A stretch of 60,958 bases of DNA from Candidatus Nomurabacteria bacterium (GTDB lineage Bacteria; Patescibacteriota; Minisyncoccia; Phycocordibacterales; UBA9973). Numbering within the stretch: the stretch's first letter is position 1; every line of letters starts with the position of its first letter. The position numbers and the translations under genes are program-made. The stretch is taken from NCBI GenBank assembly GCA_016196605.1, contig JACPXJ010000045.1, positions 1 to 60,958 of the forward strand. Direction: 5' to 3'. Under the pieces are notes generated by a model. The model saw nothing but the letters and a program-made list of their open reading frames with translations. It made no database searches and was not told the origin of the DNA. Positions 960-3,120 of the stretch are shown piece by piece.

Positions 960-3120
960 GATCCAAAAGAGAATAAAAAAACTGCGTGATGAGATTGCAA
1001 GATTGCGGGATCTGTATCATGTCCAAAACGCGCCTGAAGTTACTGATGATGTGTATGATTCTCTCACCAAAGAGCTAAAGGCCTTGTTGAAGGACTATCC
1101 CGAATTCCAAGATGCTAACGCGATGGAGGAGAGGGTGGCCGGCAGACCGCTCGAAAAGTTTGAAAAAGTAAAGCATAAAATACGAATGCTTTCCTTAAAT
1201 GACGCTTTTTCTCCCGAAGAGCTATATGATTGGGAAAAAAGAATCAAAAAACTATTGCCCCCCTCTCCTTTACAAGGAGAGGGGCAGGGGGGTGAGGTGA
1301 ATTATTTTTGCGAAGCTAAATTTGACGGTCTGGCTGTGTCTTTGAGGTATAAAAACGGCAAATTTATTCAAGGCGCCACTCGGGGAGATGGTTTTGTCGG
1401 CGAAGATATAACGGAGAATCTTAAAACCATCAATTCCATACCTCTTTCTCTCAGTTCTTCAAGGTCGAACCTTGGGGATTCAAAAAGGTTCGACCTTTTC
1501 CCGCCGGAATACCTCGAAGTCCGGGGCGAAGCGTTGATGAGCAAGAAAACATTGTCAAGGTTGAACCTTGACAATGAAAAGGAGGGCAAGCCGCTTTTTG
1601 CCAATACCCGCAATGCGGCGGCGGGGAGCCTGCGGCAGCTCGATCCGAAGCTGGCAGCCATGCGTGAACTTGATTTTTTGGCCTATGACATAGCGGAAAT
1701 AGAATTTCAAAGGTCGAACCTTGGGAATTCAAAAAGGTTCGACCTTAAAAAACATTCAGAAAAACATCAATACCTCCGGACACTGGGATTTAAAGTAGAC
1801 GGGCACGAGGCAGTCTGTGCAAATTTGATTGAAGTAGTTTCTTTCATAAAAAAGTTTGAGAAAATCAGGGCGGACTTTCCTTATGGTACGGACGGTGTCG
1901 TGATATCGGTAGATGATTTGAAGTTGCAGGCTGTTTTGGGCGCTGTCGGCAAAGCCCCGCGCTTTATGGTGGCTTTTAAATATCCGGCAGAAAAAGCGAC
2001 AACAATCGTAAAAAACATTCTGGTCAATGTCGGCCGCACTGGGGTGCTCACCCCTCTTGCCGTGTTTGAGCCGACTCTGGTTGCTGGATCTTTAGTGGGG
2101 AAAGCCACTCTCCACAATATGGATCAGATCGAACGTTTGGGATTGCGCATCGGGGACACTGTGGTGATAGAAAAAGCGGGGGATGTCATTCCCAAGGTAG
2201 TAGAAGTGCTTATCCGCATGCGCACAGGGAAAGAAAAAAAATTTAGAATGCCGGATAAATGCCCGGCTTGCGGCGGAAAAGTGGAAAAAAGAATTACCAC
2301 CCCGAGCCCCTCCTTGACCAAGGAGGGGAGGAATCCCTCTCCCCCTGCCAAGGGGGAGTCCCGAAGGGGAGGGGGTCTTTCAGTTGCTTATTATTGCGTC
2401 AACCCCAAGTGTCGGGCGAAGGATGAAAGGTATTTGGAGCATTTTGTGTCAGTTTTTGAAATATATGAGCTTGGCCCAAAAATTTTGAGGCGGTTCAAGG
2501 ATGAAGGACTGATCACCGATGCCGCCGATATTTTTACGCTGGAGAAAGCTGATATCTCTCCCTTGGAACGTTTCGGAGAGAAATCGGCAGAAAACATTGT
2601 TACGGAGATAAATAATAAACGCGACATCCCGTTGTCGCGTTTTCTCTGGGCGCTGGGGATTCTACATGTAGGAGAAGAGACGGCTCGTAATTTGGCATTG
2701 CATTTTGGTACATTAGAAAAATTGATAGAAGCTGTGACTCATAATCAAGAAGAAATAGACAGTATAGAAGATGTCGGACCAGCGGTGCTAAAAAGCGTGG
2801 GTGATTTTTTCAAAGATAAAAATAATTTGAATTTTATAAAAAAACTGCTCAAGAATGGCGTTATAATCCAAAAAGCCGAAAAAGCAAAGAAGGGGAAGTT
2901 TACCGGACTTAATTTTGTTTTGACCGGCACACTTTCTAAAATGTCGCGAGAAATCGCCAAAGAGAGAATATTATCTCTTGGCGGTAAGGTGGTTGGTTCA
3001 GTTTCAAATAACACTTCTTATGTCGTGGCTGGGGAAGAACCGGGCTCTAAGCTAAAAACTGCGGAAAAATTAGGGATAAAAGTTATAAATGAGAAAGATT
3101 TTTTAAATATGGTAAACTAA
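946..3120 (+). CDS. ligA: NAD-dependent DNA ligase LigA (with four repeat-derived insertions)
   Basis: KxDG motif (EAKFDG), [16 protein letters not shown], 4-Cys Zn finger (CPACGG...CVNPKC), HhH region and C-terminal BRCT (FVLTGTL...). In-frame ATG at 946 chosen over the ORF-track start at 889. Confidence 0.93.
1258..1303. repeat. P element (GC-rich nested hairpin), in-frame in ligA
   Basis: cccctctcctt-tac-aaggagagggg followed by the tail caggggggtgaggtgaatt. Translated as [14 protein letters not shown]. Confidence 0.8.
1459..1498. repeat. Q element (13-bp stem hairpin), in-frame in ligA
   Basis: aaggtcgaacctt-ggggattcaaa-aaggttcgacctt, with perfectly complementary arms. Translated as [14 protein letters not shown]. 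Confidence 0.85.
1708..1750. repeat. Q element, second copy in-frame in ligA
   Basis: aaggtcgaacctt-gggaattcaaa-aaggttcgacctt, nearly identical to the 1459 copy. Translated as [15 protein letters not shown]. Confidence 0.85.
2292..2376. repeat. P element inverted pair, in-frame inside the ligA zinc-finger region
   Basis: aattaccacc...cccctcctt-gacc-aaggagggg followed by ctccccct-gcca-agggggag...gggagggggtc. Translated as [27 protein letters not shown]. Confidence 0.8.

Follow-up and report, generated by a model that had tools for sequence, protein, structure and literature searches.

We analysed a 60,958-nt stretch of DNA (the window), which is contig C13 of a Candidatus Nomurabacteria genome (G000; 617 kb, 48 contigs, 41.5% G+C), and identified in it three copies of a hairpin element, Q, that lie in frame inside ligA, coding for NAD-dependent DNA ligase, and smc, coding for a shortened SMC protein. 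Q elements are probably inverted doublets, resembling REPINs (REP doublets forming hairpins), of a repetitive extragenic palindrome (REP) with the core AAGGT-NNN-ACCTT, in a REP system of this Patescibacteria lineage that includes REP-associated tyrosine transposase (RAYT) genes. The arms of Q are palindromes that share the core of the hairpins flanking RAYT genes, and Q elements were therefore assigned to such a system. Genomes and contigs other than the window are referred to below by G and C numbers.

The Q cores in ligA both have the form AAGGTCGAACCTT-N11-AAGGTTCGACCTT with a perfect 13-bp stem, and differ at one loop base: copy 1 reads AAGGTCGAACCTT-GGGGATTCAAA-AAGGTTCGACCTT and copy 2 reads AAGGTCGAACCTT-GGGAATTCAAA-AAGGTTCGACCTT. 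Copy 1 is bordered by TCAGT-TCTTC, a decayed flank, on the left and by TTCCC-GCCGG on the right, and scores 75 bits with the covariance model of the family. Copy 2 (60.8 bits) has non-canonical flanks, with neither the TCCTC/TTCCC internal loop nor the outer helix of the full element. Copy 3 (70 bits) reads CGGGC-TCCTC-AAAGTCGAACCTT-GCACTCTCTA-AAGGTTCGACCTT-TTCCC-GCCTG on the minus strand; its loop is 10 nt long (TAGAGAGTGC), and its right arm (AAGGTTCGACTTT) has one mismatch. Folded as single-stranded DNA (ssDNA), the Q copies reach −11.6 to −13.6 kcal/mol (z −3.6 to −5.4), copy 3 standing at −11.6 kcal/mol (z −3.8). With up to two mismatches, the Q pattern has nine matches in the window compared with 1.67 expected, and none of 100 shuffles scored as high; a reversed-pattern control gave 0–2 matches per genome compared with 32. 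Chance or coding constraint is ruled out as the source of Q by these shuffles, by the reversed-pattern control and by the dependence of the encoded peptides on frame.

The stems, the shuffle test and the genome-wide copies agree that Q is a real, dispersed, in-frame hairpin family, as the original prediction from the window had proposed. That prediction had also listed the encoded peptides correctly, including KVEPLESARFDF, and had located all three sites; its smc hairpin (20693–20728) is exact, whereas its ligA hairpins (1459–1498 and 1708–1750) were drawn one to four bases too wide. It had also taken the near-identity of the ligA copies as a sign of recent spread or gene conversion; events of this kind between the two copies are not specifically supported. 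A copy in cca, which lies on a different contig, has the same 37-nt core as copy 2, and the cores in tsaD and fmt are nearly the same, so the identity is a property of the family as a whole; it also extends across species. The prediction made no mention of RAYT genes, whose link to Q would explain the family. The two Q copies and two P insertions that it had counted as repeat-derived in ligA are present, but the count was short by a fifth repeat-derived piece, a single REP-type palindrome. This is a perfect 13+1+13 palindrome whose AAGGT..ACCTT core is that of the hairpins flanking the RAYT gene of contig C23, and it folds as ssDNA at −12.2 kcal/mol (z −6.2). It causes no length change relative to LigA orthologues, where it aligns with TLxxLNKKNE.

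Alignment of oriented copies defined a full element of about 57 nt, 5'-NNNNN TCCTC AAGG-N5-CCTT loop AAGG-N5-CCTT TTCCC NNNNN-3', with a loop of 10–11 nt that is often GGGAATTCAAA. The element is composed of a copy-specific 5-bp outer helix, the conserved unpaired TCCTC/TTCCC motifs and a 13-bp inner helix with a covarying centre, and the 13-mer of each arm forms a 5+3+5 palindrome of its own, AAGGT-NNN-ACCTT. The outer five bases vary among copies yet remain complementary (GGGGC/GCCCC, CTGGC/GCCAG, GAGCC/GGCTC, AAATC/GATTT). Across 10 G000 copies, 92.8% of cells are paired and 8 of the 18 pairs have changed on both sides, which none of 500 shuffles reached. The inner helix is paired at all 13 positions in 46 of 57 non-redundant copies, with 26 arm variants. 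In the outer helix, four or five of the five positions are paired in 22 of the 24 canonical copies, and 19 left arms are represented. On average the outer helix forms 4.54 pairs compared with 3.0 for permuted partners (maximum 3.6 in 2000 permutations). The 57-copy alignment was fitted to the covariance model, which favours pairing; the permutation control is unaffected by this. Run across 301 genomes in 190 genera of the order, the model found matches in 71 genomes and 53 genera, and full-length, high-scoring matches occur in other families. We considered a MITE, a miniature transposable element with inverted repeats, and rejected it: the Q flanks show no direct target-site duplication of the MITE type and carry the inverted complementary 5-bp outer helix instead.

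The exact 13-mer occurs 24 times in G000, and a search with the arm centre relaxed identified 13 Q doublets, many more sites than the three first noted, all of them deep inside long open reading frames (ORFs). The hosts encode RseP, UvrA, PurL, LepA, ComEC, LigA (two copies), SMC, the CCA enzyme, TsaD, MnmA and Fmt; the thirteenth is a trigger-factor-like ORF, named from its sequence only. All three reading phases are used, and the eight copies with canonical flanks, in which orientation can be read, are divided between four in sense and four in antisense to the host gene. The host frame passes every copy without a stop, and the encoded peptides fall into three unrelated types depending on frame and orientation (KVEP.., QGRTL..GSTF and RSNL..KRFDL). 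An element built to be open in all six frames was rejected, the mean being 3.2 open frames per 57-mer compared with 2.85 for random genomic 57-mers; only the CGA/TCG 13-mer is stop-free in all frames. Singlets of G000 are inside ORFs in 19 of 28 cases, and in other genomes 13–18 of 28 copies are. A DNA-uptake sequence, a candidate prompted by the neighbouring pilin-like genes and by comEC, was also rejected; known DNA-uptake sequences have more than 1000 copies, and the density of Q, with tens of copies, is too low.

The LigA product matches the E. coli LigA structures 4GLX/2OWO (E 1e-87), and orthologues were found in 40 of 41 relatives. In an alignment of 18 same-genus genomes (62–75% identical) and 6 genomes of other families (45–46% identical), the two Q copies are insertions, as predicted, missing from most same-genus and all other-family orthologues, and their peptides do not occur in LigA of unrelated bacteria. 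The positions proposed by comparison with E. coli LigA also held: copy 1 lies between IPLKL and LEVRGE (+10 residues) and copy 2 after FFCYGVGVLEG (+7 residues). Against empty orthologues copy 1 adds a net 13 residues. Site 1 (after SIPLxLxxP) contains Q in G000 and G020, other hairpin-like inserts in three species and nothing in the remainder. Site 2 (after AYDIAEI) contains Q in G000, a Q-like copy in G006 and other inserts in three species, and the Zn-finger site contains Q-type copies in G020 and G007 and a P element in G000. G006 is sister to G008 (support 100/98), which is empty at site 2, and a gain or loss has therefore occurred since their split; within the genus the LigA tree has the shape of a star, with 12 of its 21 forks open, and turnover is seen only in this pair. 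In the CCA enzyme of G000 the Q copy adds about 18–24 residues (the cca DNA alignment omits the G009 locus), and the same loop carries a different hairpin family in three other species.

The insertion positions correspond to loops in E. coli LigA, and these loops are short both there and in the other-family LigAs. The AlphaFold model of LigA has a mean predicted local distance difference test score (pLDDT) of 80, with values below 50 only at residues 107–112 (P1), 170–174 and 176–178 (Q1), 259–261 (Q2) and 451–476 (P2); when the alignment is shallow, lineage-specific inserts are expected to score low, and the result is supportive only. As a further observation, hot-spot loops whose hairpin families differ between species lie at LigA alignment columns of about 105–121, 180–210, 275–305 and 497–540 and, in the CCA enzyme, after HDIGKP. 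Outside these loops the remaining protein is never insert-bearing in either alignment.

At site 1, the orthologous copies in G000 and G020 agree at 50 of 57 positions (88%); the 60–300 nt of ligA that flank them are 65–68% identical and its third codon positions 40%. They differ by a compensatory stem pair, CGA/TCG in G000 and CGG/CCG in G020, and each carries the predominant variant of its own genome (9 of 13 G000 copies and 7 of 8 G020 copies, respectively). This pattern indicates constraint, homogenisation or re-insertion at the level of the DNA and not of the peptide. We observed a parallel in the P insertions of ligA, which most orthologues do not have: G007 carries P1, and G014 carries P2, in almost the same bases as G000, although the proteins are about 74% identical.

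The link to RAYT genes comes from four Y1-type ORFs of G000, on contigs C8, C40, C23 and C2. The first three were scanned and match Pfam PF01797 (Y1_Tnp) at 34.6–41 bits, above the gathering score of 23, and the HFH and YIHLNP motifs are seen in the RAYT protein alignment. All four genes have AAGGT-NNN-ACCTT hairpins immediately on both sides. These are solitary hairpins extended to stems of 8–11 bp, namely TGTGAAGGT-TCG-ACCTTCACA, GACAAGGT-TCG-ACCTTGT, ATGTCAAGGT-TGA-ACCTTGACAT and CGGACAAGGT-TAA-ACCTTGTCCG. The AAGGT/ACCTT core is invariant in the flanking hairpins and the outer stem changes by compensation (GTG/CAC, GAC/GTC, AGT/ACT, CGT/ACG). RAYT genes flanked in this way occur also in G001, G005, G020, G027, G031, G033 and G036 (five families), and all eight genomes examined that are rich in AAGGT..ACCTT 13-mers have one. 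For G000, G031, G033 and G036, the predominant arm variant of the dispersed copies has the same centre triplet as the RAYT-flanking hairpins. G000 has 13 RAYT-like matches, 12 of which have a private hairpin on either side, no two paralogues having the same one. The Y1 paralogues are only 30–52% identical to the C8 protein and are therefore not recent insertion-sequence copies. An IS200/IS605 insertion sequence was rejected on this ground, no near-identical copies being present, and because the same hairpin stands on both sides of each gene instead of distinct left and right subterminal hairpins.

Several further observations concern these genes. RAYT-like Y1 genes are located in the window and on contigs C2, C4, C6, C8, C9, C18, C19, C23 and C40. 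Those of the window are flanked by the hairpins TGTCAAACA-tcggg-TGTTTGACA and AGTGGTCAACCT-gcc-AGGTTGACCACT, respectively. At least seven paralogues hold their own cognate hairpin in frame inside the ORF (window 38854–38876; C8:5445, C2:2103, C40:7847, C6:5256, C9:7942 and C18:408), either ahead of the HUH motif, in a loop at about codon 55–60, or just after this motif; such a hairpin could serve autoregulation or reflect preferential insertion in cis. A perfect 20+2+20 palindrome in the window (ACTTGGCGGTTAAACCGCCA/TGGCGGTTTAACCGCCAAGT) is a doublet of the hairpin flanking another RAYT gene, C8:114-512. Several RAYT-like matches contain one in-frame stop (TGA, TAA or TAG), as in G000:C18:145-690, G001:C23, G036:C11 and G020:C33, and may be decaying copies or something else.

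Table. Coordinates of Q elements, related repeats and genes (window positions unless a contig is given)
Feature	Position	Strand	Remark
ligA (NAD-dependent DNA ligase)	952..3120	+	host of two Q doublets, one Q-type singlet and P insertions
Q copy 1, full 57-nt element	1451..1507	+	sense in ligA; core hairpin 1461–1497
Q copy 2	1700..1756	+	in ligA; core hairpin 1710–1746
Single REP-type palindrome, CATTGTCAAGGTT-G-AACCTTGACAATG	1550–1576	.	in ligA, in frame
P insertions	1258–1291; about 2296–2385		in ligA
smc (shortened SMC)	18950..21109	+	host of Q copy 3
Q copy 3, full 56-nt element	20683..20738	-	antisense to smc; core hairpin 20693–20728
RAYT-type Y1 ORF	C8:5279-5980		Pfam Y1_Tnp above gathering score; NCBIfam best match REP-associated tyrosine transposase
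RAYT-type Y1 ORF	C40:7366-7992		Pfam Y1_Tnp above gathering score
RAYT-type Y1 ORF	C23:11954-12610		Pfam Y1_Tnp above gathering score; NCBIfam best match REP-associated tyrosine transposase
RAYT-like ORF	C2:1623-2282		52% identical to C8 protein
RAYT-like gene	38684–39304	+	flanking hairpin at 38632 and 39344
RAYT-like gene	44664–45263	+	flanking hairpin at 44608 and 45313
Perfect 20+2+20 palindrome	29028–29069
Tandem 150-residue ORFs	53–505; 507–959
AT-rich palindrome	62–89; 519–546

Based on the association with RAYT genes, we propose that the cognate RAYT would bind the Q hairpin on ssDNA, cut it and join it in the manner of E. coli TnpA-REP, and that this action would spread or homogenise the copies. 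Because about 88% of the 0.6-Mb genome is coding, copies would persist only where their net length is a multiple of three, free of stops and tolerated, that is, in surface loops, and the encoded peptide would be a passenger. The host codons at ligA site 1 (S-S-P-F-P) resemble the element flanks, and there may be a target preference for TCCTC/TTCCC-like sequence.

A number of points weigh against assigning Q to a REP/RAYT system. Mobilisation of Q by a RAYT is something we infer from association. The C8 and C23 proteins match a single NCBIfam model, NF047646 (REP_Tyr_transpos), at 47 bits compared with a cut-off of 80. No GTAG or CGTC tag precedes the hairpins, the bases before AAGG being TGTG, CTGAC, ATGTC, AGT and CGT, and the doublets' TCCTC/TTCCC flanks do not appear around the RAYT-flanking singlets. 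For G001, G020 and G027, one RAYT-flanking hairpin each was examined, and its centre triplet is unlike that of the dispersed doublets. Copies number in the tens and not in the hundreds. Relative to empty sites, ligA site 1 is longer by a net 39 nt and cca by about 54 nt, so that empty sites do not mark the element boundaries cleanly, and the copy-specific outer helix is outside what an IS200/REP mechanism explains. Finally, the location of all 13 doublets inside genes is not a significant enrichment given a coding share of about 88% (0.876^13 = 0.18); the unusual feature is that Q elements are not excluded from genes, rather than that they are enriched there.

Some of these points would suit a selfish or structural hairpin that is spread or kept uniform without any RAYT, by gene conversion between copies or by template switching at hairpins during replication, a process that creates and lengthens palindromes; its shared core would then reflect common descent and not present-day mobilisation. 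Outer helices that are copy-specific yet complementary suit "palindrome perfecting" by template switching over cut-and-paste, and the palindrome at 1550–1576, which replaces host codons without changing length, is better explained in the same way; the mismatch between RAYT-linked and dispersed hairpins in G001, G020 and G027 points in this direction too. However, the flanking of RAYT genes by AAGGT..ACCTT hairpins in eight of the eight 13-mer-rich genomes, and 12 RAYT paralogues in G000 with private hairpin families, which are hard to account for without specificity between enzyme and hairpin, make RAYT-free spread unlikely. More generally, the outer helix, the replacement at 1550–1576 and the reuse of loops would be compatible with hairpin-templated repair, template switching or cassette exchange, and equally with selection for tolerated sites.

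It is quite unlikely that Q copies are cis elements useful to the host, acting as protein-binding sites or as mRNA structures that pause translation between domains or stabilise transcripts. High conservation at the DNA level across species and families would agree with such a role, as would the conserved unpaired TCCTC/TTCCC motifs, the fact that the hairpin family found in a given LigA or CCA-enzyme loop varies between species, and the presence of 5 of the 13 copies in genes of DNA metabolism (ligA twice, uvrA, smc and comEC), echoing the bias described for intragenic REPs (PMC3733652). The distribution of the copies speaks against it: it is patchy even among sisters (G006 filled, G008 empty), most orthologues have no insert at the Q sites, and in other genomes about one third of the copies are outside long ORFs. 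Moreover, with four sense and four antisense copies the RNA would differ. Removal at the RNA level as a mini-intron, or a functional peptide motif, is very improbable. The only sign of either is the recurrence of similar peptides (RSNLG.SKRFDL and QGRTLG..KGSTF), a consequence of the palindrome. Excision of the 37-nt core or of a 56-nt copy would shift the frame, although this argument is void for a 57-nt copy, and a peptide function conflicts with the three unrelated peptide types produced by three frames and both orientations and with the predicted disorder of the Q segments.

Within the RAYT-linked explanation, a more far-reaching and unlikely version is that a swarm of a dozen orthogonal RAYT–hairpin pairs in 0.6 Mb has the loops of essential proteins as its habitat and that the enzymes exchange or re-template hairpin cassettes at fixed sites. 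If true, cassette exchange would explain the reuse of loops, the genome-specific arm variants and the copy-specific complementary outer helices. It would also amount to site-directed ssDNA editing or concerted evolution by a mechanism new to REP/RAYT, and the hairpin inside each RAYT reading frame might add autoregulation.

The closest known systems are the REPtrons of Proteobacteria, in which REPs or REPINs are combined with a RAYT, also called TnpA-REP (PMC2817692, PMC3116915, PMC8266576). REPINs are defined as inverted REP doublets (PMC3116915, PMC3337134), and the TnpA-REP proteins of E. coli and Stenotrophomonas bind and cut REP hairpins on ssDNA (PMC8266576). As in REPtrons, a gene resembling a Y1 HUH transposase stands here between short palindromes, the palindrome is dispersed, in many cases paired in inverted orientation so that a longer hairpin can form, and one "master" variant predominates per genome. 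The group-3 REP of S. maltophilia, with a perfect 8-bp stem and 3-nt loop, resembles the singlets of the Q system, GTGAAGGT-TCG-ACCTTCAC. Unlike REPtrons, the Q system is without the GTAG tag, its doublets are bordered by conserved but asymmetric TCCTC/TTCCC sequences and by an outer helix specific to each copy, and its copies, in tens as opposed to hundreds, are mostly intragenic and translated, with 13 of 13 G000 doublets inside ORFs where REPtron palindromes are extragenic. RAYTs usually number 1.3–1.8 per replicon (PMC5581495), whereas G000 has 12–13 paralogues with private REPs. Genomes that carry Y1 genes have a larger average size (PMC6006769). Our literature search found no paper joining RAYT or REPIN with Patescibacteria. 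The Q family is a new, gene-invading form of REP/REPIN-RAYT.

Intragenic GTAG/CGTC REPs have been reported as singlets or dimers that lie wholly within ORFs and encode 20–30 amino acids, preferentially in genes of replication and repair (uvrA among them); the authors read them as tolerated insertions (PMC3733652). They are a minority of mostly extragenic families and come from Proteobacteria, Verrucomicrobia and Rickettsia, where the Rickettsia palindromic elements (RPEs) RPE-4 and RPE-6 were equated with CGTC REPs (PMC3733652). In comparison with these, Q is intragenic as a rule, belongs to an unrelated sequence family and is without tags. Like RPEs, Q is an in-frame palindrome, a likeness in behaviour only. 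In 2000 Ogata et al. reportedly described RPEs as selfish palindromes that enter the housekeeping genes of a reduced genome in frame, add an extra surface peptide and are identical at the DNA rather than the peptide level; RPE-1 is reportedly 100–150 bp long and without an associated transposase. Q differs in being 57 nt long, RAYT-linked and of a Patescibacteria lineage, with no sequence relationship.

The usual view of REP/REPIN-RAYT systems places them outside genes, in larger and mainly proteobacterial genomes that have about one RAYT each; here such a system would be thriving inside essential genes, in one of the smallest free-standing genomes and with a dozen enzyme–hairpin pairs. Q-type elements would give a cause for many unexplained insertions in housekeeping proteins of the Candidate Phyla Radiation (CPR). 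Because such lineage-specific loops would be mobile DNA rather than adaptations, protein alignment, modelling and phylogeny in the CPR would be affected. The insertions also represent a natural experiment on insertion-tolerant loops of proteins, and the apparently orthogonal pairs of HUH enzyme and ssDNA hairpin form a set open to biochemistry.

Among the remaining features of the window, the SMC product matches NCBIfam TIGR02168 (SMC_prok_B) at E 1e-152, yet under the curated cut-off. The two tandem ORFs beside ligA have pilin-like hydrophobic N-termini with nearly the same start (MKK(V)...), and the AT-rich palindrome ATATTTAAATATTTAAATATTGAAATAT overlaps the N-terminal start of each.

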